DNA from: Fibrobacterota bacterium
Lineage (GTDB): Bacteria > Fibrobacterota > Fibrobacteria > UBA11236
DNA: 64,000 nucleotides
Direction of reading: 5' to 3'
Assembly: GCA_028287505.1 (NCBI GenBank)
Contig: JAQBPN010000070.1
Location: 3,671 to 67,670, forward strand
Shown here in pieces: positions 24,943-40,672 of the stretch (its first letter is position 1; the number at the start of each line of letters is the position of its first letter). The translations under genes and the position numbers were made by a program. The notes below the pieces were generated by a model. That model saw nothing but the letters and a program-made list of their open reading frames with translations, searched no databases and had not been told where the DNA came from.

Positions 24943-26526
24943 CTATTTCCGCAAAAGATTGTGGACCCGGGTCATAAGATCATAGGGAGAAAAAGGCGTG
25001 ACCAGGTAATCGTCCGCGCCCAACTGGAATCCCCGCGCCAAGGCCTGATCGGCACCCAATGACGTAATCATCAGCACGGGCACCCGGTTCCCCCGCCAGC
25101 TGGAGCGCAGATCCGTGAGCAGGCTCCGTCCCTGGGACGCCTCCTGTTTCAGGTCCAGGATCCAAAGGGCGCAAGGCGTGGCCAGGGCCGCACGCAAGGC
25201 CGAAGCGCCATCGCGGCAATGCACCACCTCGAAACCTTCCCGGTCCAGACTGTTGGAAACGATTGAGGCGACCTGATCGTCGTCCTCGGCCAAAAGGATT
25301 TTCTGCGTCTCCACCTTGGTCTGATCGGCTTCGGAAACCAAACGCGCGCGGCCGCCGGTCTTGGCCAGGTAGAGGTAGCGATCCGCCTCGGCCATGGCCT
25401 TCTCCACGGTGGAATCATGGAGCACGGAAACCAGGCCCGCGGAAAATGTCAGGGGAACCGGGCGGCCGTCCTGGGTGCGGAAAGGGATGGAAGCCAGGGT
25501 GGAGAACATTTTTTCCACGGCGAAGCGCGCGCCCGGCAGATTGGTGTTGGGAAGCAGCAGGGAGAATTCGTCCCCTCCCCATCGGGCCAGGAAATCGGAA
25601 CGCCGCAGGGCGTCCGCGAAAGCCCGGGCGGCATGGCGCAAAGCGGCATCGCCGGCCACATGGCCCAGGTGATCGTTGATGCGCTTGAGCATGTCGAAAT
25701 CCAGCAAGGCCAGGGAGGTGGGTTCCTTTTTCCGCGCGGCCAGGGCCACCGCGCGGTGGAAGCCTTCGCAAAAGGCCGCGCGATTGGGCAATCCCGTGAG
25801 CGCGTCCTGCCGCGCCTCGCGGCGATGCTCGATGGACCGGTGCAGGCGCGCGGAGACGGCGGCCTTGAGGACTTCCGGGGCCAGGGGTTTCTCGAAATAG
25901 GCATCGGCGCCAAGCGCGAAACATTCCGTCTTGGGCTGAGGTCCGCCGATTCCGGAAAGCACTATCACCGGGACCCCCGACGTGGCCGATCGTTCGCGCA
26001 GGAGCATCAGGAAGTTCCGGCCATCCGTGTCCGGCAGGGAAAGGTCCAGGATGATGAGCGAGAACTGCCTGTCCTCCAGCACCGCCAAGGCTTCGCCCGC
26101 GCTGCCCAGGGCCGTAATCTCCCGATCGGAACCGGAGAGGATTGTCTCCAGCAACCGGCACATCTGCGCGTCGTGTTCGATGATGAGGATGCCGGGAAGA
26201 TCCCCCGGACCCAGCGCCGCGCTGACCTTGATCAATTCCGAGAGCAGGCGGTCCAGGCAATAAGCCAGCTCTTCCGGACGGGACTGCTCCACGGCGCGGG
26301 CGGATTCCCCCAAGGAATGGAATCCGTAGCTGTTGGCCGAACCGCGCAGGCTGTGCGCGATGCGCCGGACGGAATCCGTGCCGTCCGGGGATTTCGCGAG
26401 ACCCTTCCTCGCGGTCTTGAGCGCGTCTATGCTGGCCGGGAGACTCCCGCGATACCACTTCCTTAAATCTTCCATAACTCTCCATGCCCATTGACCGTGC
26501 TCATTCGCCTTCTCCCTCCGCGCCAT
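24943..26526 (-). CDS. Hpt-REC-GGDEF-REC multidomain protein (phosphorelay-regulated diguanylate cyclase)
   Basis: Hpt motif RIAHSLRGSANSYGFHSLGE; first receiver (LIILDLSLPD); GGDEF domain with intact RWGGDEFSLLLP; second receiver at the C-terminus (ILDLKQE...LGADDYLVTPF). Confidence 0.85.
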   Translation of the reverse strand: MARREKANEHGQWAWRVMEDLRKWYRGSLPASIDALKTARKGLAKSPDGTDSVRRIAHSLRGSANSYGFHSLGESARAVEQSRPEELAYCLDRLLSELIKVSAALGPGDLPGILIIEHDAQMCRLLETILSGSDREITALGSAGEALAVLEDRQFSLIILDLSLPDTDGRNFLMLLRERSATSGVPVIVLSGIGGPQPKTECFALGADAYFEKPLAPEVLKAAVSARLHRSIEHRREARQDALTGLPNRAAFCEGFHRAVALAARKKEPTSLALLDFDMLKRINDHLGHVAGDAALRHAARAFADALRRSDFLARWGGDEFSLLLPNTNLPGARFAVEKMFSTLASIPFRTQDGRPVPLTFSAGLVSVLHDSTVEKAMAEADRYLYLAKTGGRARLVSEADQTKVETQKILLAEDDDQVASIVSNSLDREGFEVVHCRDGASALRAALATPCALWILDLKQEASQGRSLLTDLRSSWRGNRVPVLMITSLGADQALARGFQLGADDYLVTPFSPYDLMTRVHNLLRK

Positions 26527-27661
26527 CGTCGATGTCCTGGAAGCCCAGGTGGCGGAAAGCGAATTCGCCGCGGATCCCGAAGCCGGTATAGGTCTGGTTG
26601 TCGACTTGTCCGTATAGCATCGTCCCGGCCACGCGTATGCGATGGTATTCCCAGATCCTGAGGCCCATAGTCAGCCCCGCTTCCGTTTCATGCCCCACCG
26701 CGGTTCCGTTCCAGCTGAAAATCGCCCTGGGCGCCACGTGCAGGCGCCAGAGAATGTCCGGATCAGGGGCCCAGGCCACGGACATTTCCAGGTAGGCCCT
26801 TTGCAGGTTGTCGTCCGTGTCCGGGGCCTCCAGATCGGATTTGAGCTTGAGGCGCCGGTTGGCGTCCGGCAACTTTATCGCCGCGCCTAATCCCGTTTGC
26901 CAGGCCACCCGGCGGAGCGATTTGAGATATTCGTAACGAAACTGATAAAGATCCCCTTCGTTGTGGGCGGGGATGCGGATATCATTGCCCTCATCGCCAT
27001 AAATGGAGGCCTTGGCGTCCCAGCGGTGGCGCGCCGCCCGCGCCTGGTATATGGCCCGTCCGGAGAAATCGAAATAGGATGCCGGAAAGAAGGCTTTGTC
27101 CTTGATCAGCCGGAAAAGCGCGGGACGGGAATATCCGAATCCTCCTATCAAGGTCCAATTGGTCCAGGCGTAACGGCCGAAAACCGCCGCTTGCAAAGCC
27201 CGCGGGGACAGGAAGGAGGAAAAGGGCATGGGACTGTACCCGTTCATGGCCTGGTACAGCGCCAGGGAATCCGCCAAGGCGATGGTGTCGCCGAAGATGG
27301 GGATGTTGCCGCCGAAGGAGACGAAGAGATAATCCCGCAGCACTTCGGCGCTGGCCTGCAGCTTCAGGGCCAAGGGCTCCCGATAGGGCTGGGAGAATCC
27401 GGGGGCCTGGGTCTCCCGGGAACGCAGCCCGATATGGAACCAGGCGAAGGTGAGCGATTGGATGGTGAATCCCTGGTAGAGGCTCGCCTGATAGGGATAA
27501 GGCTGGCCGGTCACGGCAGGCGAGTTGAGATAGAACACGTCGATGGAACTGTGGGCGATCCACGGGAACCCGTGTTCCTGGCTGATCTCGGCGGTATCGG
27601 TCTTTTGCGCCAGCGCGGAGACGGCGGACAGCAGGACCGGGATCAGGAAACGCAGCGTCAT
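26501..27661 (-). CDS. Outer-membrane beta-barrel protein, uncharacterised
   Basis: Start at MTLRFLIPVLLSAVSALAQ (signal peptide), which is Met28 of ORF 26501..27742. Beta-strand periodicity rich in Y/W/F. Overlaps the upstream repeat-protein gene by 4 nt and the downstream GGDEF gene by 26 nt. Confidence 0.5.
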   Translation of the reverse strand: MTLRFLIPVLLSAVSALAQKTDTAEISQEHGFPWIAHSSIDVFYLNSPAVTGQPYPYQASLYQGFTIQSLTFAWFHIGLRSRETQAPGFSQPYREPLALKLQASAEVLRDYLFVSFGGNIPIFGDTIALADSLALYQAMNGYSPMPFSSFLSPRALQAAVFGRYAWTNWTLIGGFGYSRPALFRLIKDKAFFPASYFDFSGRAIYQARAARHRWDAKASIYGDEGNDIRIPAHNEGDLYQFRYEYLKSLRRVAWQTGLGAAIKLPDANRRLKLKSDLEAPDTDDNLQRAYLEMSVAWAPDPDILWRLHVAPRAIFSWNGTAVGHETEAGLTMGLRIWEYHRIRVAGTMLYGQVDNQTYTGFGIRGEFAFRHLGFQDIDDGAEGEGE

Positions 27662-29364
27662 GGGCCGAGACGGTCCGGGCTGCAGAGGTAACATCCGGAT
27701 TCCTGGGCGCCGGAACGGAACGTGCCGCCGAACTCGCCCCAACCCTCCTTCTCCGAAGAAAGCACGTCCATCTCCATGTCCATTTCCCTGGATTCGGAGA
27801 CGATGAAAGACTGCATGGATTTGTCCGCCGTGCGCAACGCCGAGCCGGCTCCGAAAAACTTGCCGGGAAGGAACATGGCGAAGGGCCGCGTGCCCCGGTT
27901 GGGATCCACGGTTTCGAATTCACGCAGGATGCGATCGCCACGCAATGGATTGAGCCTTTCCTGCTTGAGCGAGTAGCCGCGCGTCCGCACCGTGCGCATG
28001 GCTCCGACCGCCACGGCTTCCTGGGAACTCAAGAGCGGTTGCGCGGACATGCTTCCTTTGACCACCTCCATGGTGGAAATGCTGCCTTCGTGGCGGAACA
28101 ACACGGCTTGCGGCTGACCGCGCGCGATAAAGGAGGGAGTGAGCACCACGCTGTTGTCCTGGAAGGCGAGCAGGCCTATTTTGCGCCAGATGCTGTTGCT
28201 GTCCAGCGAGGCTATTTCCCCCAATTTGCGCCAGATGAGATTGTTGCTGTCCAGGGAAGAAACCTGGCCCAGGCCTTTCCAGACCAGGTTGGAACTGTCC
28301 AGCGCGGCCACCTGCGTCAATGTGCGCAACAGCAGATTGCTGCTGTCCAATGCCGTCACTTTGCCGAAGGTCTTGAACAGCAGATTGTTCGAGTCCATCG
28401 ACGTGACCTTCTGCAGGTTTTTGAGGATGAGGTTCTGGCTGTCGAGCGAGGTAACCTTGCCGAGACCCTTCCAGAGCAGGTTGCTGGTATCCAGGGCCGC
28501 CACCTTGGTCAGGGTCTTCCAGATCAGATTGCTTTGGTTCAAGGTGGTGGCCTGTCTCAGGCGCCCCTCCACCGAAGAGGAATCCACGCCCTTGATGATC
28601 CCCAGGGTCCCCTGGTTGAGCTGCACCACCTTGGGGAGCAGATAGGTGTAGGAAGAATGCGGGTACAGAACGTAGTGGATATTCTCCATGCTGATGACGA
28701 TGAGCCGCGGCGCGTCCCCGATCACCAGGGTGGTCCCCAAGGGCACTTCCGAGATGGATCCCTTGTGGATGATGGCGAGTCCGCGGATGAGCATGGCGGG
28801 GTTGGCCGGAACCTTCAGCTTCAGGACTCCCAGCGATGGAGGGTCCGCTTTTTTGGCCAGGAAGGAGGCCTCGAAAGGGCGCGCCACGGCCTGGGCGAAC
28901 AGCTTGCGCTTCTCCCCCGCTTCCAGCAAAACATGCAATGTATCGAGAACGCGGTTTTTCGCGGAGAACATGTCCACCGCTTCCGGCCGGCAGCGGTATT
29001 CTTCCTTCAATTCCGCGCACTCGACGATCAGGCCCCACTTCACCTGGTTTCCGTTCATGGGCGCGAGCAGGGCCGGGTCGGCGATCTTGCCTTTGGCATG
29101 CGCCGAATCCAGGGCGTTGCCGTTCTTCTTGCGGAGATCGAAGACCAGCAAGGCGGTGTCATCCGCCAAGGCCTGGCCCATATCGCGCGAAAGCCCTTCG
29201 TTATAAGCGGAGTCGCGGCCTTCCACGTAGGCGCCCAATACGCTGACGGCGACCTTGCCCCACGCGGAACCCAGGAAGACGGATAGGATGAGGCAAACGT
29301 TCCGCAAGGCGGAACGACGGTTTCGCGTTGCGGGACACGACGGCCCGGCCGGGGAAGCATTCAC
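27658..29364 (-). CDS. Secreted protein with 7-8 tandem 16-residue repeats (consensus NLxWKxLGKVTSLDSx); LRR-like but shorter than canonical LRR units
   Basis: N-terminal hydrophobic signal (NVCLILSVFLGSAWG). Residues about 279-406 are exact 16-aa periodic repeats, mirrored by a 48-bp DNA periodicity. The alternative-frame ORF 28139..28645 is also periodic. Confidence 0.6.
   Translation of the reverse strand: MNASPAGPSCPATRNRRSALRNVCLILSVFLGSAWGKVAVSVLGAYVEGRDSAYNEGLSRDMGQALADDTALLVFDLRKKNGNALDSAHAKGKIADPALLAPMNGNQVKWGLIVECAELKEEYRCRPEAVDMFSAKNRVLDTLHVLLEAGEKRKLFAQAVARPFEASFLAKKADPPSLGVLKLKVPANPAMLIRGLAIIHKGSISEVPLGTTLVIGDAPRLIVISMENIHYVLYPHSSYTYLLPKVVQLNQGTLGIIKGVDSSSVEGRLRQATTLNQSNLIWKTLTKVAALDTSNLLWKGLGKVTSLDSQNLILKNLQKVTSMDSNNLLFKTFGKVTALDSSNLLLRTLTQVAALDSSNLVWKGLGQVSSLDSNNLIWRKLGEIASLDSNSIWRKIGLLAFQDNSVVLTPSFIARGQPQAVLFRHEGSISTMEVVKGSMSAQPLLSSQEAVAVGAMRTVRTRGYSLKQERLNPLRGDRILREFETVDPNRGTRPFAMFLPGKFFGAGSALRTADKSMQSFIVSESREMDMEMDVLSSEKEGWGEFGGTFRSGAQESGCYLCSPDRLGP
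28147..28530. repeat. 48-bp tandem DNA repeats (about 8 copies) inside the repeat-protein CDS
   Basis: Periodicity is visible in both the real frame and the alternative-frame translations (…SSEAISPNLRQMRLLLSREETWPRP…). Confidence 0.65.
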
Positions 29365-29581
29365 CCCGTTATTATACCCTTTCCCAAGGGCTGGAACGCA
29401 ACCGGAGAGTTATTCGGCGATACAGTCCGTCGTAAGGTTATCCGGATCCCGATGGCCCCGGAATGCGGCGCGCCGGATCGCGCCATGAAATTGTTTCGGG
29501 GCATGGCCCCATTAGATAGATTCTATCCGTTCCGGATATCACAGAAATGTTCCGCGAGCAACGGTCCCCCGGAGAATTTCC

Positions 29582-31657
29582 ATGGCCGGTTCAAAAACGC
29601 CCGGTTCCAGATTGGCTCTGCCGCTTTCCCTGCTGGCATTCTGCGCCATCCACCGGGAAGCCGGGGCCGGAACCGAAGGGGATCCGCAAGGTCCGATTTT
29701 CCGGAAGCCGAGTTTCTCCCAAATGGAACGCGTCGTCGTGGTCTCCAAAAAACCGGAAAGCATCCTGGAAGCGCCCGGTACGGTTTACGTCATCACGGAT
29801 GAGGATATCGAAAGGTTCGGCTGGCGGGACATGCGGGAGATCCTATGGTCCATCCCGAACATGGATCAGGTATGGCAATTATACTGGGCGAACGGAGGAC
29901 AAAGGGGATTCACGGGGAATTCCGCGGGCACGTTGCTTCTCATCGACGGCAGGGAGGTCCAGAACCTGCTGGCCGACGAGGCCATGATGCAGAACTTTCC
30001 CGCGCACCGGATCAAACGCGTCGAAGTGCTGCAGGGGCCGGGTTCGGCTCTTTACGGAAGCAACGCGAGCGAAGGCGTGATCAACATCGTGACCAAGCTG
30101 GCCGATCCGCTTCAAGAAGACGCCTCCCAGGTGAGCTTCCTTGCCGGGGAAACGGACTCCCGGGGAGCCTACGCCTTCAGCAGGAAAAACGGCGCAAACA
30201 CGTCCTTGGGCGTGAGCGGGTCCTATTTCACCAGCCTGCAGAATTGGGGTCCCCTGCGTGATTTCATCGCCGATGACGGCCGCTTCTCCCGCCGTCCCTC
30301 CGTGGACTCCGTCCGCGACAAGGAATCCGATAAAGTGGTATTCCCGGTCGAAAGCGAAACCTTCGATTTCTTCGCTTCCAGCCCCCACGTCTATGCCGGA
30401 GCGAACTATTTCCGCGAAGAGAATACCGAAGGTATGGAAATGGTCCGCGTCCGGTTGGGGGAACGCACCGGTTACCGCCTGGCCTTCCACGGATTCGCCG
30501 GCGCCAAATATGAGCGCGAAGCACTCCAGGGCTTCGCCGAATACCGGTATAGCCGGGAACGGGACAATTTCCTCGGAGCGGACCAGACGGTGATACCGTT
30601 GCCCAATCGGGTCTTCCGGCCGGAACGCCATCGGCTGAAAGCGCAGGGAACCTACCGTTTCCCGAACCAGACCATTGTGTTCGGTTACGACGGGATAATT
30701 CATGAGACCGGGTTCTACGAGGACACCTCGCTGGTGGGAGGGCTGACCTATCCCTCCATTCCCTCCAGGATTTTCCGTACCTATCTGAATTCCGTTTTCG
30801 CCGAGAATACGATATTCCTCCTCGATGGGCGGTTGAAAATCAACGCGGGCCTGCGGGTTGAAAAGCAGAAAGGCATGGATCCGCAGGTGATTCCCCGCTT
30901 GGGTATGGTGCTCCAGGCTTGGCGGGGAGCGGCCGTCAAACTTCTCTATGGGCACGGTGTCCGGGCTCCCGGTCCGTTCGAGCTCAACAATGCAAGGAGC
31001 GCCGGGATTGCCGCATCGGAAGTACCCTCCCGCAAGACCGACGATTTCGAAGTGAATTGGGTCCAGGAATCCGGTTGGGGCGACTGGCGATTCGTAAACA
31101 GCATGTCGGGATACCACATGGTGGCAAACGAAAATTTCCAGCAAGTCCTCGTCCAGGATACCTTCCGGTTGGTCCTGGACGAGGACAAGACGGTGGATGG
31201 GGTCGAAGACCTGCTCCGCATTACCTGGCGCGAAAAGCATGGCGGTTTTCTGGGCGGCCGATGGATCGATCCATCCCGGACGGAAGTGGCCGGGGAGAAA
31301 ATAGTGGCTGACGTGCCCATCGTCCGCGGAAAGGCCGGATTGTATTCGCGATTGCTTCCCTGGATTCTCATCGGCGTGTTCATCGACGCATCGGGAGAGG
31401 TCAAAACGGATGCCAATTCCCCGGATGGAAATTCCGTCGAAGTCCTGACCATTCCCGGTTGGGTGAACACGAATCTCAACCTGCGCCTGGGTGACTTCGA
31501 TCTGGGAAAGCCGGGAGGAGCGAGGCTGGGTTTTTCCACCTTCATCGAGAATGTTTTCGATGAAACCTATTACCACCCCAACCATCGGGGAACGTCTCCC
31601 ATCCAATACATGCAGGCTCCGCGGAACATGCGATTCACCGCGGATATGAAATTCTAA
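29582..31657 (+). CDS. TonB-dependent outer-membrane receptor
   Basis: Signal peptide; plug domain (VVVSKKPESILEAPGTVYVITDEDIERFGWRDMREIL...LQGPGSALYGSNASEGVINIVTK); 22-strand barrel pattern; C-terminal ...RFTADMKF. Confidence 0.85.
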   Translation: MAGSKTPGSRLALPLSLLAFCAIHREAGAGTEGDPQGPIFRKPSFSQMERVVVVSKKPESILEAPGTVYVITDEDIERFGWRDMREILWSIPNMDQVWQLYWANGGQRGFTGNSAGTLLLIDGREVQNLLADEAMMQNFPAHRIKRVEVLQGPGSALYGSNASEGVINIVTKLADPLQEDASQVSFLAGETDSRGAYAFSRKNGANTSLGVSGSYFTSLQNWGPLRDFIADDGRFSRRPSVDSVRDKESDKVVFPVESETFDFFASSPHVYAGANYFREENTEGMEMVRVRLGERTGYRLAFHGFAGAKYEREALQGFAEYRYSRERDNFLGADQTVIPLPNRVFRPERHRLKAQGTYRFPNQTIVFGYDGIIHETGFYEDTSLVGGLTYPSIPSRIFRTYLNSVFAENTIFLLDGRLKINAGLRVEKQKGMDPQVIPRLGMVLQAWRGAAVKLLYGHGVRAPGPFELNNARSAGIAASEVPSRKTDDFEVNWVQESGWGDWRFVNSMSGYHMVANENFQQVLVQDTFRLVLDEDKTVDGVEDLLRITWREKHGGFLGGRWIDPSRTEVAGEKIVADVPIVRGKAGLYSRLLPWILIGVFIDASGEVKTDANSPDGNSVEVLTIPGWVNTNLNLRLGDFDLGKPGGARLGFSTFIENVFDETYYHPNHRGTSPIQYMQAPRNMRFTADMKF

Positions 31658-31674
31658 GGAAGGGATTCCGGCCC

Positions 31675-32253
31675 ATGCTGTCATTTGCCTCCAAAGCCGC
31701 GGTCGCCATGTCCATGCTGATCGCCGGCAGCGGCGCGGCGGTCGCGGAGTCGGCGATTTCGGCCCCGGAATACAATGTCAAGGCCGGGTATCTGTTGCTT
31801 TTCATCCGCTATGTGACATGGCCCGACACCACGTTCGCATCGCCGCAATCCTTCATCATCGTCGGGGTTTTGGGAAGGGATCCATTCGGAAAAGTGCTGG
31901 AAGAAACGTTCGCGGATGCGGCCGGCATGACAGGACGGAAAACGGAAATCCGCCGGGTTTCCGATGTTGCGGGCGCGATGGGATGCCATGTGGTCTTCAT
32001 CAGCGATTTCGAATCCGGCCATACCGCGGAATGGCTGGCGGCATTGCGGGACAAGCCGATTCTTACCGTCACCGAAACCGAAGAAGGTGCGGATGCCGGT
32101 TCGATAATCAATTTCATCAAGGAAGGGAACCGGGTCCGGTTCGAAGTCAACCTGATGGCCGCGCACCGTGTCGGCCTGAAAATCGCATCGCCTGTGCTGG
32201 TGTCCGCGCGGAATGTCGGAAAGCAGGGCGGCAAAGAAGAGGGAAATCCTTGA
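31675..32253 (+). CDS. YfiR-family (DUF4154) periplasmic protein
   Basis: Signal peptide followed by VKAGYLLLFIRYVTWP...HVVFIS...ILTVTETEEGADAGSIINFIKEGNRVRFEVNLMAAHRVGLKIASPVL, typical of YfiR/DUF4154. The stop overlaps the start of the downstream kinase (TGATG). Confidence 0.75.
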   Translation: MLSFASKAAVAMSMLIAGSGAAVAESAISAPEYNVKAGYLLLFIRYVTWPDTTFASPQSFIIVGVLGRDPFGKVLEETFADAAGMTGRKTEIRRVSDVAGAMGCHVVFISDFESGHTAEWLAALRDKPILTVTETEEGADAGSIINFIKEGNRVRFEVNLMAAHRVGLKIASPVLVSARNVGKQGGKEEGNP

Positions 32254-34535
32254 TGGTCTCGATAATGGAAGATCCCGAAGAAGGATGGGGGCGGTTCAGG
32301 AACCTGCCCATCCAGCGGAAACTTTTTTTCACAATCGCTTTGACCCTTGGATTCGCGATCCTGGTGGCCTCGTCCGCTTTGCTCATCTATGAAGCCCGTT
32401 CTTTCCGGCCGCGCACCCTGGAAAAAGCGGAATCCCGGGCCGAAATGCTGGCCGAAATCCTGGTGCCTCCCATGGAATTCGACGACTCCGCCACTTGCGC
32501 CGCCTACCTCCGCACCCTGAGGCATACGCCCGATATATCCAGCGCGGTCCTGTGCGATACCGGAAGGAACGCTATCGCGTCCTATAGCAGGACGGCCGGT
32601 GACCCGTTTCCGCATCGGGTACGGACACTGCCGACGGGGCCGACTTTCGGCCCGCACGAACTCATGTATCTGCTCCCGGTATCCGATCATGGCCATCTGC
32701 TCGGATACCTGGCGCTCAGGGAGGAATTGCCCTCCTTTCTGGAACGCCTGCCCCAATACGGCATCATGCTTTCGGTGATCGCCCTCTCCCTGCTGGCCCT
32801 GGCGGCAATGCTCGCCCTTGTCCTCAAACACACGGTTACCGCCCCCATCGTCGCATTGGCCGGTATCGCCAAAGCGGTCGCGGAAGACAAGGACTACGGG
32901 CAACGAGTCAAGTCGGGAGGGAAGGACGAAGTGGGATCGATGACGGCCGCCTTCAACATGATGCTGGATGCCCTGGAACAACGGGAACATTCGCTGCTCG
33001 AAAGCCGCGCATTGCTCCAATCCGTCATCGACAATTCCATGTCGATTATCTTCGTGAAGGATCCGGAGGGGCGCTACATATTGATCAACCGGCGGTTCGA
33101 GGACATTTTCCACGTTTCCCTCCAATCGGTACGGGGCAGAACCGATCGCGATATTTTTCCCGAAGAATCCGCGGAAGCGTACCGGGCGGGCGATCTGCGC
33201 GCCCTGGCCGGCGGCAGACCCGTTGAGATGGAGGAACAGATTCCGCAGGACGACGGCCGGCATACCTACATCACGGTCAAATATCCCTTGCGCGACGCCG
33301 CCGGAAAGGTCTATGCGGTTTGCGGTATCGCAACGGACATCACCCAGATAAAGAATTATGAGGAACAACTCCGCCAAAGCCAGAAAATGGAGGCGATCGG
33401 CCGCTTGGCGGGCGGCATCTCCCATGACTTCAACAATCTCCTCACGGCCATCAACGGTTACAGCATGATGGCCTTGCAGAGCGTGGAAGCCGCCAATTCC
33501 ATCCATGGATTCCTGGAAGAGATCCTGAAGGCCGGCGAACGGGCCGCCGGCCTTACCCGCCAACTGTTGGCCTACAGCCGTAAGCAGATACTCGAGCCCA
33601 GGATCTGGAACCTCAATGAAATCGTGATGGACATCGAAAAAATGCTCCGACGGCTCATCGGGGAGGATGTCCGGCTGACCACCCGCCTGGCGCCGGATCT
33701 GAAGATGGTAAAGGTCGATCGCGGCCAGTTGGAGCAGATCATCCTGAACCTAGCGCTCAATGCCCGCGATGCGATGACCGGAGGGGGGGAATTGATCGTG
33801 AAAACCGGAAACGCGTTCCTGGATGGGGCCTATGCCGCGACCCACCCTGAAGTGGCCGCGGGTCCATACGTCCAGCTCGAGGTGAGCGATACCGGTTCCG
33901 GCATGAACCGGCAGGTCATGTCGCATCTGTTCGAACCGTTTTTCACCACCAAGGAACCCGGCAAAGGCACGGGGCTCGGGCTGTCCGTGGTGTATGGAAT
34001 CGTACAACAGAGCGGAGGATCCATTTCCGTATCCAGCGAACCCGGGAAGGGGACTACCTTCAGCATCTATCTGCCGACGACGCCCGTCTCCGGGACTTCG
34101 CAACCTGAAGGCGGCAAGCTTCCCGAGGGAGGCGCATTCCGGGGAAAGGAAACCGTGCTTCTGGTGGAAGACGAAGAAGTGGTCCGCAGGTTCACCCGGC
34201 ATATCCTGGAGGCCCAGGGGTACGCCGTTCTGGAAGCCGTCGATGGGGTCAAAGCGCTCGAAGCCATCGCCGGCCACGCCGGCCCGGTGGATTTGATCCT
34301 GTCCGATGTGGTGATGCCCCACATGGGCGGGCCTGAATTGGCCGAACGGTTGCGCAAGGAATCCCGGGACATTCCCATGCTTTTCATTTCGGGCTATGCC
34401 GATGGGGGTGCGGCCAGCTTGGGCCCATTCGCCGACGGAAACGATTTCCTGCAAAAACCGTTTTCCCCCTATAATCTGGCGAAAAAGGTGCGGGAAATCC
34501 TCGACCGGGTCCGAACCAGCGAACCCGAATCATGA
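32253..34535 (+). CDS. Hybrid sensor histidine kinase (TM-periplasmic-TM-HAMP-PAS-HisKA-HATPase-REC)
   Basis: Two TM helices bracket a periplasmic domain of about 150 aa. HAMP; PAS ([25 protein letters not shown]); H-box ([11 protein letters not shown]); N/G boxes; C-terminal receiver ([10 protein letters not shown]...[12 protein letters not shown]). Start is Met146 of ORF 31818..34535. Confidence 0.9.
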
Positions 34536-39245: not shown

Positions 39246-39493
39246 GGCGGCTTTCGGTTTCGTGGCCAAAATGGATCTCCTTAAATGCGGTGAATCCGGG
39301 GAGGGAAGGGTTTGGTGGAAATGATGGGATGTGTAACATCCGGAAAGATATAAAAAGGCTTCCAAAGGGAAGTACCCGTGGCGACGGGCTACCTAATTAT
39401 TATAACAATTTTACCGGGAAATGGCTCCGGTATCCGGCGGAAATCCCCATTTTCCGGGAGCCGGACACCCTTATTTGTATATTTCCGCACCGC

Positions 39494-40672
39494 ATGGCAC
39501 GCCCCGAAACTCTCGTTCTTCTGGCCCTTGGCAGCAACCTGAATGATCGCGAGGGGTATATCCAAAAAGCCCTGGACGCCATCCGGACAATCGCAACCGC
39601 GCCCATCCAAAAATCCAAAGTCTACGAGACTTCGCCGGTGGGCCCGGGTCCCCAAGGCAAGTACCTGAACATGGTGGTCCGCTTTTCCACGCGCCTGGAA
39701 GCGCGGGCCCTGCTCAACTTCTGCCTGGAAACCGAATCCCGTCTCGGGCGCAAGTCCCGGGGCCGCTGGGCCGCGCGGGAAATCGATCTGGACATCCTCG
39801 CCTATGGCCGGGAAATCATCCACGAGGACGGCCTCGCCGTCCCCCATCCTTCCATTCTCGATCGCCAATTCGTGCTGGTGCCCATGACGGATCTGGATCC
39901 GGATTTCATCCTTCCGGGTTTCAAGGAAACGGTGGGCAGGCAATTGCAGCGCTGCATCGAAGTGCAGGGCCCCCAGGACGTGGAGGAGTATCGGCCCATG
40001 CCCGCATCGCAAGTGTCCTTGCCGGAACGCATCCGTTACGTGGCCGTGGAAGGCGTCATCGGCGTGGGCAAATCGACCCTGGTCAAGGCCCTCTGCGATC
40101 GCATGGGATGCATGCCCCTGTTCGAGGAATTCGAGAACAATCCGTTCCTGTCCGATTTCTACAAGGACAAATCCCGCTACGCCTTCCAGACCCAGGTGTT
40201 CTTCTTCCTGTCCCGGTACCGGCAGATCCAGGAGGTCTTTCCGCAGCAGGATCTGTTCCGCCCGCAGATCCTCAGCGATTACATGTTCGCCAAGGACAAG
40301 ATTTTCGCCACGCTCAACCTGGACGAGAACGAAGTGAACCTGTACTACAAGTTCGCGGATATCCTCGAGCGGAACCTGATCAAACCGGATTACGCCATCT
40401 ACCTTCAGGCGGATACCAAGACCCTGATGAACCGCATCAAGCTGCGGGACAGACCCTACGAGCGGACCATGGACGAAGCCTACATCGAGGCCCTGAACCG
40501 GGCCTACAACCACTTCTTCCATTATTATTCCGGCTCGCCCCTGATGATCATCAACACCAACAACATCGATTTCGTCCGCAATCCGGAGGATCTGAACCTG
40601 TTGATGGAGACGATTGCGAAGGCGCCGGAGGGGGTTACTTACTTTTCGCCCACCTCCATGGGTAAGAAATAA
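39494..40672 (+). CDS. folK: Bifunctional fusion: 6-hydroxymethyl-7,8-dihydropterin pyrophosphokinase (HPPK/FolK) fused to a deoxynucleoside kinase
   Basis: N-terminal LVLLALGSNL...VYETSPVGPGPQ...REIDLDILAYG...AVPHPSILDRQFVLVPM is HPPK. C-terminal YVAVEGVIGVGKSTLVKAL plus the dNK/dCK-family ERF/DRY-like core. Start is Met69 of ORF 39290..40672. Confidence 0.8.
   Translation: MARPETLVLLALGSNLNDREGYIQKALDAIRTIATAPIQKSKVYETSPVGPGPQGKYLNMVVRFSTRLEARALLNFCLETESRLGRKSRGRWAAREIDLDILAYGREIIHEDGLAVPHPSILDRQFVLVPMTDLDPDFILPGFKETVGRQLQRCIEVQGPQDVEEYRPMPASQVSLPERIRYVAVEGVIGVGKSTLVKALCDRMGCMPLFEEFENNPFLSDFYKDKSRYAFQTQVFFFLSRYRQIQEVFPQQDLFRPQILSDYMFAKDKIFATLNLDENEVNLYYKFADILERNLIKPDYAIYLQADTKTLMNRIKLRDRPYERTMDEAYIEALNRAYNHFFHYYSGSPLMIINTNNIDFVRNPEDLNLLMETIAKAPEGVTYFSPTSMGKK

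Follow-up and report, generated by a model that had tools for sequence, protein, structure and literature searches.

How does a TonB-dependent receptor (TBDR) that has no signalling domain feed a histidine kinase through a YfiR-like periplasmic protein? This real and testable question is raised by a locus in a metagenome-assembled genome (MAG) of the Fibrobacteres, from which a stretch of 64 kb was analysed (the window; all coordinates are positions in the whole window). Three plus-strand open reading frames (ORFs) lie head to tail at 29582-34535 in the ORF map and encode a TBDR, a DUF4154/YfiR-like protein and a hybrid histidine kinase. A previous reading, made from the nucleotide sequence without database searches (the sequence-only reading), had described them as a rewired YfiR repressor module, in which the TBDR replaces the lipoprotein YfiB and the kinase replaces the diguanylate cyclase YfiN. 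We propose that the three proteins form an envelope-spanning three-component sensory cassette in which the YfiR-like protein gates the kinase, the TBDR provides the input and a phosphorelay leads to an Hpt-GGDEF protein, and we regard this account, taken as a whole, as an even call. Its best-supported core is the predicted binding of the YfiR-like protein, probably as an inhibitor by analogy with YfiR, to the CHASE8 domain of the kinase at F76 through a face centred on F156. The features of the cassette are:

29582-31657, plus strand: TBDR, 691 amino acids (Pfam Plug, 6.5e-16; TonB_dep_Rec_b-barrel, 8.4e-12)
29726-29746, plus strand: TonB-box-like segment E49-S55 (ERVVVVS) of the TBDR, which aligns with a conserved pre-plug 'EVTSVSK'
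31675-32253, plus strand: YfiR-like periplasmic protein (DUF4154), 192 amino acids, with a signal peptide (Pfam DUF4154, 1e-37)
32131-32211, plus strand: C-terminal strand-helix face of the YfiR-like protein, residues 153-179, RVRFEVNLMAAHRVGLKIASPVLVSAR, in ungapped alignment to YfiR 159-185
32251-32255, plus strand: TGATG stop/start overlap of the YfiR-like and kinase genes, read directly from the sequence
32253-34535, plus strand: hybrid sensor histidine kinase, 760 amino acids (Pfam domains)
32412-32717, plus strand: CHASE8 sensor domain of the kinase, residues 54-155 (Pfam CHASE8, 1.5e-9), with F76 at 32478-32480

The TBDR and YfiR-like genes are separated by 17 nt, and the ATG of the kinase gene at 32253 takes as its first base the last base of the TGA stop of the YfiR-like gene (ccTTGATGgtc), an overlap that is predicted to couple the translation of the two genes. 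Coordinates, gene order and coupling are all as the sequence-only reading had described them. The TGATG arrangement is also present in one related locus (L096), and overlaps of 4 nt of the ATGA type occur in L002, L007, L008 and L009. We assume that the three genes are co-transcribed from a promoter within 29365-29581, a region in which no match to the sigma-70 consensus was found; terminator-like sites around the operon were fewer than in shuffled sequence and are uninformative for its bounds.

The YfiR-like protein, whose signal peptide ends at AVA/ES, is 100% identical to a hypothetical protein of 'Fibrobacteres bacterium' in GenBank (locus tag JWO30_2609). Its placement in the YfiR family by the sequence-only reading is borne out by Pfam, by a sequence search of the PDB and by fold: DUF4154 'YfiR/HmsC-like' (PF13689) scored 129.9 bits against a gathering score of 24.9, Pseudomonas aeruginosa YfiR (4zhy) was retrieved with E=3.6e-6, and the top 15 Foldseek matches of an AlphaFold2 (AF2) model (pLDDT 83.8) were all YfiR (TM-score 0.73, E=1.8e-8). 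NCBIfam release 20 holds three models for the trio, NF053590 (TBDR), NF053591 (YfiR-like) and NF053592 (kinase), and the second of these, 'TOL_0243 family YfiR-like periplasmic protein', matched with 142 bits against a cutoff of 125 over profile positions 1-149 of 150, whereas NF053586, 'regulatory sequestration protein YfiR', reached 42.1 bits, below its cutoff of 85. The protein is a member of the DUF4154/YfiR-HmsC-like superfamily but not YfiR sensu stricto, since it falls below the NF053586 cutoff, lacks the cysteine pairs of YfiR and is accompanied by neither a GGDEF sensor nor YfiB. After YfiR, the next-best fold matches in the PDB were entries for a Rhodothermus marinus 'substrate-binding protein' of ~155 amino acids (6k1x, 5z6v and 8wgl) and the L-Trp-bound 3lft. 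R. marinus is among the species for which Malone et al. list a distant yfiNR pair (PMC3375315) and, given this listing and the fold match, the solved R. marinus structure may be an unrecognised YfiR-like protein.

The C-terminal face of YfiR is known from genetics and crystallography to be the surface that binds YfiN and YfiB and to hold a hydrophobic pocket (PMC3375315, PMC4655355, PMC4887326). This block aligns without gaps between YfiR and the window protein, with F162 corresponding to F156, E163 to E157, N165 to N159, L166 to L160, R171 to R165, V176 to I170, V180 to V174 and L181 to L175. The sequence-only reading had named loss of the conserved YfiR surface residues as a finding that would count against it, and they are not lost: F162, E163, N165, L166, V180, L181 and A184 are kept, with I in place of F151 and A in place of I169. 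Across 81 family members, the interface residues F156, E157, N159, L160 and L175 are 58-97% conserved, F156 itself at 91%; at position 170 the commonest residue (L) reaches only 45%. The alignment predicts that the YfiN/YfiB-binding face is largely kept. Its residues were compared between loci of the two main TBDR types and no clear difference was seen. P. aeruginosa YfiR binds vitamin B6 and L-Trp weakly, with affinities of tens of millimolar, in a pocket formed by L166/I169/V176/P178/L181 (PMC4887326), and the counterpart of this pocket in the window protein, L160/A163/I170/S172/L175, is still hydrophobic. The YfiR-like protein also carries the motif G67-R-D69-P70-F71-G72 (31873-31890), which lies in a strand-to-helix loop and shows little or no variation among the YfiR-like proteins linked to TBDRs. 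P. aeruginosa and E. coli YfiR lack the motif and have GPTEYA and SSSRFS, respectively, in its place; it may be a family-specific functional site apart from the sensor-binding face.

These properties also bear on whether the YfiR-like protein is a removable repressor at all. It could instead act as a co-receptor, as in TorT-TorS or LuxP-LuxQ, which binds a ligand and in the loaded state switches the kinase on. In favour of this, its fold corresponds to one half of a type I periplasmic binding protein and has substrate-binding entries and 3lft as the next-best PDB matches, YfiR binds vitamin B6 and L-Trp, and the family-specific G67-x-D69-P70-F71-G72 motif could be a ligand site. We consider a co-receptor role quite unlikely: YfiR and HmsC, the only homologues that have been characterised, both act as inhibitors, conservation falls on the residues of the repressor-sensor interface, and the small-molecule affinities of YfiR are very low, as given above (PMC4887326).

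The partner of the YfiR-like protein would be the sensor of the kinase. Pfam places CHASE8 at residues 54-155 of the kinase, followed by HAMP (191-243), PAS (254-365), HisKA (383-445), HATPase_c (489-610) and REC (635-747), and CHASE8 is assigned to the periplasm because hydrophobic spans at residues ~24-46 and 166-190 bracket it. The layout given in the sequence-only reading, a YfiN-like transmembrane (TM)-periplasmic-TM-HAMP portion with a HisKA-HATPase-REC output, stands, except that the PAS domain had been omitted. The catalytic motifs are present (H391, N-box 502-507, and the G1 and G2 boxes DTGSGM at 546-551 and GTGLGL at 572-577), as are the acidic pocket D640/E641, D685 and K735 of the receiver, and by these motifs the gene is predicted to encode a hybrid histidine kinase of the phosphorelay type; Pfam detects no Hpt domain in it. 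CHASE8 is also carried by E. coli DgcN/YfiN (Pfam, 1.3e-33), the two N-termini match in BLASTP with E=3e-6, and F76 of the kinase aligns with F70 of the 'AAVVF' YfiR-binding motif of DgcN/YfiN and is invariant in 82 of 82 related kinases. The comparison of periplasmic domains that the sequence-only reading had proposed therefore shows that this sensor is not unrelated to that of YfiN. The interface between YfiN F70 and YfiR F162 was mapped genetically in the YfiR-YfiN pair (PMC3375315), and the counterparts of both residues are kept in the window. The kinase sensor is predicted to be a YfiN-type module of the form TM-CHASE8-TM-HAMP. The N-terminal NCBIfam model NF053592, 'sensor histidine kinase, YfiR-like protein-associated', aligns with residues 19-242 of the kinase over profile positions 1-222 of 223, and the kinase N-terminus is a divergent relative of this family. 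A word-indexed homologue search with residues 1-250 returned one irrelevant match only.

We sought to establish how often these three genes occur together. In a first survey, all seven YfiR-like homologues with usable contigs were found with TBDR, DUF4154 and CHASE8-HAMP-kinase genes. A motif-based scan, in which each GTDB species was represented by a single genome, yielded 171 confirmed loci; 80 of these were retained, and the ORFs of the related loci were called and then searched with the window domains and with E. coli YfiBNR. As the loci were selected by two motifs of the YfiR-like subfamily, the counts describe this subfamily and not all DUF4154 proteins. A TBDR gene lies immediately upstream of the YfiR-like gene in 68 of 77 related loci with enough upstream sequence, and a CHASE8-HAMP gene immediately downstream in 81 of the 83 with enough downstream sequence, so that the combined TBDR and kinase context for which the sequence-only reading had proposed a survey is conserved, as is the position of the TBDR in place of YfiB. 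In a background comparison, a TBDR filled the upstream slot in 70 of 86 related loci, as against five TBDR genes in ~750 kb of other flanks, or ~1.5% per gene slot, and the adjacency of TBDR and YfiR-like genes is far above chance. Behind the CHASE8 sensor, the output was a histidine kinase in 32 cases, histidine kinase-REC in 27 and of no recognised type in 12; in none of the related loci surveyed was the sensor fused to GGDEF. A phmmer search with E. coli YfiB detected no YfiB/OmpA-like ORF in the window or in 89 related loci.

The related loci come mostly from Acidobacteriota, and also from Verrucomicrobiota, Planctomycetota, Gamma- and Deltaproteobacteria, Deferribacteres and this Fibrobacteres MAG (at least six phyla). 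With a profile of the YfiR-like subfamily, 29,623 cluster representatives were retrieved at a threshold of E<=1e-3, and 11,590 at one of E<=1e-30. The trio is an old cassette spread across many phyla and not a one-off rewiring of YfiBNR. The idea of a local derivative of YfiBNR, as implied by the word 'rewired' in the sequence-only reading, is not supported: the cassette is old and spans several phyla, NCBIfam already has models for it, and kinase outputs without yfiB had already been reported (PMC3375315). This locus represents a divergent form of a cassette that is very widespread and recognised by databases, and the architecture would not in itself surprise a specialist. Within the surveyed subfamily, and outside the YfiBNR case, the usual partners of DUF4154 across these phyla are a TBDR and a histidine kinase.

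Two variations on this arrangement were seen. In L001 (3752-7862) and L091 (2460-4975), two tandem TBDR genes precede the YfiR-like gene, the proximal one of L001 being split into three ORFs by a frameshift or an assembly error. Many DUF4154 representatives of 340-380 amino acids, and one of 546, match the subfamily profile two or three times (P0154-P0158, P0161, P0187 and others) and are predicted to hold tandem double YfiR-like domains in one protein, which recalls the two YfiR homologues per sensor described in Thauera by Malone et al. (PMC3375315). A metagenome scan with the YfiR-like protein gave two short loci and added little.

The TBDR of the window has the general features of TonB-dependent receptors, namely a signal peptide, a TonB-box-like 'ERVVVVSKK' (residues 49-57), a plug, a beta-barrel of the 22-strand type and a C-terminal aromatic residue (Phe). 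It lacks the N-terminal signalling (STN) extension and has no Pfam STN match; only ~20 residues separate the predicted signal-peptide cleavage site from the TonB box, and the plug begins ~30 residues after the signal peptide. The TonB-box region 'EVTSVSK' precedes the plug and is conserved in 69 TBDRs from related loci. Full-length slot TBDRs, 69 with that of the window included, fall into one cluster of 62, a second of five, and two singletons, L074 and the window, and eight of ten sampled slot TBDRs match NF053590 (TOL_0244 family) over its full length with 555-854 bits. The window TBDR is not of the TOL_0244 type, and another TBDR family has been recruited into the same slot in this lineage. 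Its full-length homologues, 33-59% identical, come from Aureabacteria, Elusimicrobia, Pseudoalteromonas, Pleionea and others; a metagenome scan with the TBDR protein found no relative. The closest relative with genomic context (L096) has a complete cassette with TGATG, in which the TBDR, YfiR-like protein and kinase are 59%, 53% and 58% identical, respectively, to those of the window and, as the whole cassette is kept there at 53-59% identity, the three genes of the new trio have since been passed on together. It is the slot that is conserved, not the identity of the receptor. The window locus thus amounts to a natural experiment, in which a TBDR of an unrelated family was swapped in and the YfiR-like protein and kinase stayed orthologous.

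Does the receptor belong to the signalling pathway, or is it what the pathway serves? Regulators are often encoded beside the transporters they control, the window TBDR family also occurs without YfiR-like neighbours, and the TBDR gene stands first and would be expressed regardless of downstream events; on these grounds the TBDR could be cargo or a co-expressed target, and the YfiR-like/kinase pair would sense something else, for example the state of the envelope or its redox state. Clustering of the flanking ORFs argues otherwise. The extra genes that recur encode single-domain REC proteins (49 loci) and REC-GGDEF or REC-PAS-GGDEF-EAL proteins (17 loci), whereas no inner-membrane transporter, ABC system or DNA-binding regulator recurs beside the cassette. 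Since no DNA-binding response regulator is conserved, a transcriptional loop back onto the TBDR is not locally encoded, and with no downstream uptake genes conserved and only REC and REC-GGDEF(-EAL) partners recurring, it can be argued that the TBDR serves signalling rather than nutrition. In addition, 62 of the 69 slot TBDRs form one family, an NCBIfam equivalog paired with the YfiR-like family, and a dedicated partner fits this better than assorted cargo. We regard the cargo account as improbable, and as less likely than import or direct capture.

Direct capture is the model of the sequence-only reading, in which a ligand-loaded TBDR exposes its TonB box or plug face, captures the YfiR-like protein and frees the kinase, with no need for import. 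In 68 of 77 loci it is a TBDR that takes the place of the outer-membrane partner, and no locus has YfiB. TonB boxes are bound by strand augmentation, as in the BtuB-TonB and FhuA-TonB complexes, and, among the periplasmic elements of the receptor, only the TonB-box region is conserved in every TBDR lineage found in the slot, which would explain why non-orthologous TBDRs are interchangeable. YfiR, too, uses one surface for both YfiB and YfiN and engages YfiB by beta-strand augmentation and insertion of a Phe into its pocket (PMC4655355, PMC4887326). The lack of conserved inner-membrane uptake genes fits direct capture as well as it fits import. However, the TBDR lacks the STN extension used by known surface-signalling receptors, and transport would suffer if the YfiR-like protein competed with TonB for the TonB box. 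Moreover, at least four unrelated TBDR lineages occupy the slot and the lineage of the window also occurs outside the YfiR context, which makes a dedicated, barrel-specific docking site unlikely. We judge direct capture unlikely but deserving of serious weight. In its specific form, the YfiR-like protein would read the occupancy of the TBDR by strand augmentation on the freed TonB box or plug face, with the edge strand and pocket by which YfiR binds YfiB, and this we hold to be rather unlikely. If it were true, any TBDR in the slot would be a surface sensor for a phosphorelay from histidine kinase to cyclic di-GMP (c-di-GMP), and TonB-dependent cell-surface signalling would have a second widespread form, which needs neither an STN domain nor an anti-sigma factor.

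That substrate at the TBDR releases a YfiR-like inhibitor, as the sequence-only reading suggested, is compatible with the data; the proposal rests on synteny, and ligand import followed by periplasmic sensing fits too. We favour import, because the fold of the YfiR-like protein resembles a periplasmic binding protein, the YfiR pocket binds small molecules and the exchange of receptor looks like an exchange of specificity. In the preferred mechanism, the C-terminal hydrophobic face of the YfiR-like protein (F156, E157, N159, L160, I170 and L175) would dock on CHASE8 around F76 and hold the kinase in one signalling state, probably the inhibited one by analogy with the action of YfiR on YfiN. The TBDR would import its ligand into the periplasm using TonB energy, and the ligand would act on the YfiR-like protein, with its half type I periplasmic-binding-protein fold, or on its complex with CHASE8, altering their association. 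The kinase would then autophosphorylate at H391 and pass the phosphate to D685 of its own receiver. The kinase lacks an Hpt domain of its own, and the next step of the relay is therefore most likely H58 of an Hpt-REC-GGDEF-REC protein, which is encoded in an operon divergent from that of the TBDR:

24943-26526, minus strand: Hpt-REC-GGDEF-REC protein, 527 amino acids (Pfam Hpt, two REC and GGDEF)
27658-29364, 26501-27742 and 24943-26526, minus strand: genes of the minus-strand operon (ORF map)
29365-29581, no strand: divergent intergenic region of 217 nt between the TBDR operon and the minus-strand operon (ORF map)

The gene for this protein is the last of its operon and lies ~3 kb upstream of the TBDR gene. 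Its product carries H58, D161, an intact GGDEF motif (317-321) and an I-site of the RxxD type (308-311). Apart from it and the kinase, no ORF in the window contains a REC, Hpt or GGDEF domain. Precedents are found in two related loci, one with REC-REC-Hpt at the end of the kinase and REC-GGDEF after it (L025), and one with the order kinase-REC, REC and REC-PAS-GGDEF-EAL (L012). From the proximity of the Hpt-GGDEF gene and these precedents we infer that c-di-GMP would still be the end point, reached by phosphorelay rather than through a fused cyclase. Both the role of the TBDR as input and the pairing of the kinase with the Hpt-GGDEF protein are likewise conjectural parts of the scheme. The Hpt-REC-GGDEF-REC arrangement is itself an unusual domain order for a single polypeptide, and its second receiver may be a pseudo-receiver, as Thr replaces the conserved Lys (VTPF in place of xKPF).

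Several observations weigh against the proposed cassette. The sign of regulation is borrowed from YfiR-YfiN, at ~22% identity. Both YfiR cysteine pairs (C71-C110 and C145-C152) are missing, with only C104 (equivalent to C110) present and G, A and N at the other positions; these pairs are needed for the stability and redox response of YfiR, and in their absence the regulation of the YfiR-like protein itself must differ from that of YfiR. NF053592 scores the kinase at 150 bits, below its cutoff of 194, and NF053590 matches the TBDR with 92.4 bits against a cutoff of 645 and in the plug region only; with the kinase below cutoff and the TBDR outside the usual partner family, the cassette of the window is atypical. 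No ligand can be named: the similarity of the TBDR to characterised receptors is confined to the plug, and a riboswitch 5' of the TBDR, sought as a clue to the ligand, gave no Rfam match. The Hpt-REC-GGDEF-REC gene lies on the opposite strand and two genes away from the TBDR. In the literature on DUF4154, YfiR, YfiN and CHASE8 we came across neither a paper that connects a TBDR with YfiR or YfiN nor experiments on such a link; of the kinase outputs, the one account there is that of Malone et al. (PMC3375315). Finally, relatives of the TBDR at 55%, 38% and 37% identity have no adjacent DUF4154 or CHASE8 gene. Coincidental adjacency of the TBDR in the window was considered for this reason and rejected, as L096 has the whole cassette and 88% of related loci have a TBDR in the slot.

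The other genes of the minus-strand operon were inspected as well. The first (27658-29364) encodes a protein of 568 amino acids with a signal-peptide-like N-terminus and about eight tandem 15-residue repeats, '[AST]LDSSNL[IL]WKxLGKV'. It has no Pfam or NCBIfam match (E up to 1), and the repeats can be seen at the protein level only, with none detected in the DNA by Tandem Repeats Finder (TRF). Between this gene and the Hpt-REC-GGDEF-REC gene, and overlapping both, lies an ORF of 413 amino acids (26501-27742) with a signal peptide, MTLRFLIPVLLSAVSALAQ, and no family match, the product of which may be an outer-membrane or secreted protein. That the TBDR belongs with these two divergent genes was rejected, as no homologues of them occur near its relatives in L093-L095. 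Elsewhere in the window, a plus-strand ORF of 460 amino acids (39290-40672) joins HPPK of the folate pathway to a deoxynucleoside kinase/thymidylate-kinase-like domain, an uncommon fusion.

The contribution of the receptor, once worked out, would assign a function to many unannotated signalling genes in soil and sediment bacteria and would be a test of whether two-component and c-di-GMP networks can take input from outer-membrane transporters that lack a signalling domain. To our knowledge, the experimentally studied DUF4154 members are the proteobacterial YfiR and HmsC only, which control a fused diguanylate cyclase and answer to YfiB. The closest characterised systems are YfiBNR/TpbB of P. 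aeruginosa (DgcN in E. coli) and HmsCDE of Yersinia pestis, in which, as here, a DUF4154 gene lies upstream of and is coupled to a gene for a TM-CHASE8-TM-HAMP sensor. The YfiR fold, the interface formed by YfiR F162, E163, L166 and L181 with YfiN F70, and an outer-membrane third component in the same operon are also shared. The differences lie in the output, which is GGDEF in these systems and PAS-HisKA-HATPase-REC here, so that c-di-GMP would be reached only indirectly; in the outer-membrane component, an OmpA/Pal-like lipoprotein, YfiB, encoded downstream there and a TBDR of the 22-strand type encoded upstream here; and in the loss of both YfiR disulfide pairs.

Malone et al. described, in silico, distant yfiNR pairs without yfiB that have histidine-kinase, hybrid-kinase, Hpt, BarA-like or GGDEF-EAL outputs (2012, PMC3375315, section 12, Table S4), with examples in Opitutus, Acidobacteria, Dechloromonas ('operon contains cdG genes'), Desulfobacterium and Thauera. 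These pairs keep the hydrophobic residues of the interface, and the YfiR-YfiN[PAS/HAMP] core was proposed to be an ancient module to which YfiB was a later addition (PMC3375315). A TonB-dependent receptor, in contrast, is mentioned neither in the main text nor in the supplements consulted (PMC3375315). The NCBIfam trio NF053590-92 has the same genes in the same order, and the window YfiR-like protein passes its cutoff whereas the TBDR and kinase fail theirs. These are annotation-level families, named after an arbitrary locus tag, and no publication or experiment behind them was found in the literature. The replacement of the cyclase by a kinase is published, and the replacement of YfiB by a TBDR is catalogued in NCBIfam but uncharacterised.

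Other systems resemble the cassette in part. In CpxP-CpxA, ExoR-ExoS, TorT-TorS and LuxP-LuxQ, the activity of a kinase is set by a soluble periplasmic protein that attaches to its sensor domain. The likeness is one of logic only, as folds and families are unrelated and there is no co-operonic TBDR. The FecA-FecR-FecI transducers, like the present cassette, couple an outer-membrane TBDR genetically to an inner-membrane signalling protein through a periplasmic link, but where they use an STN domain and an anti-sigma/ECF sigma pair, here a soluble DUF4154 protein forms the link and a histidine kinase serves as transducer.

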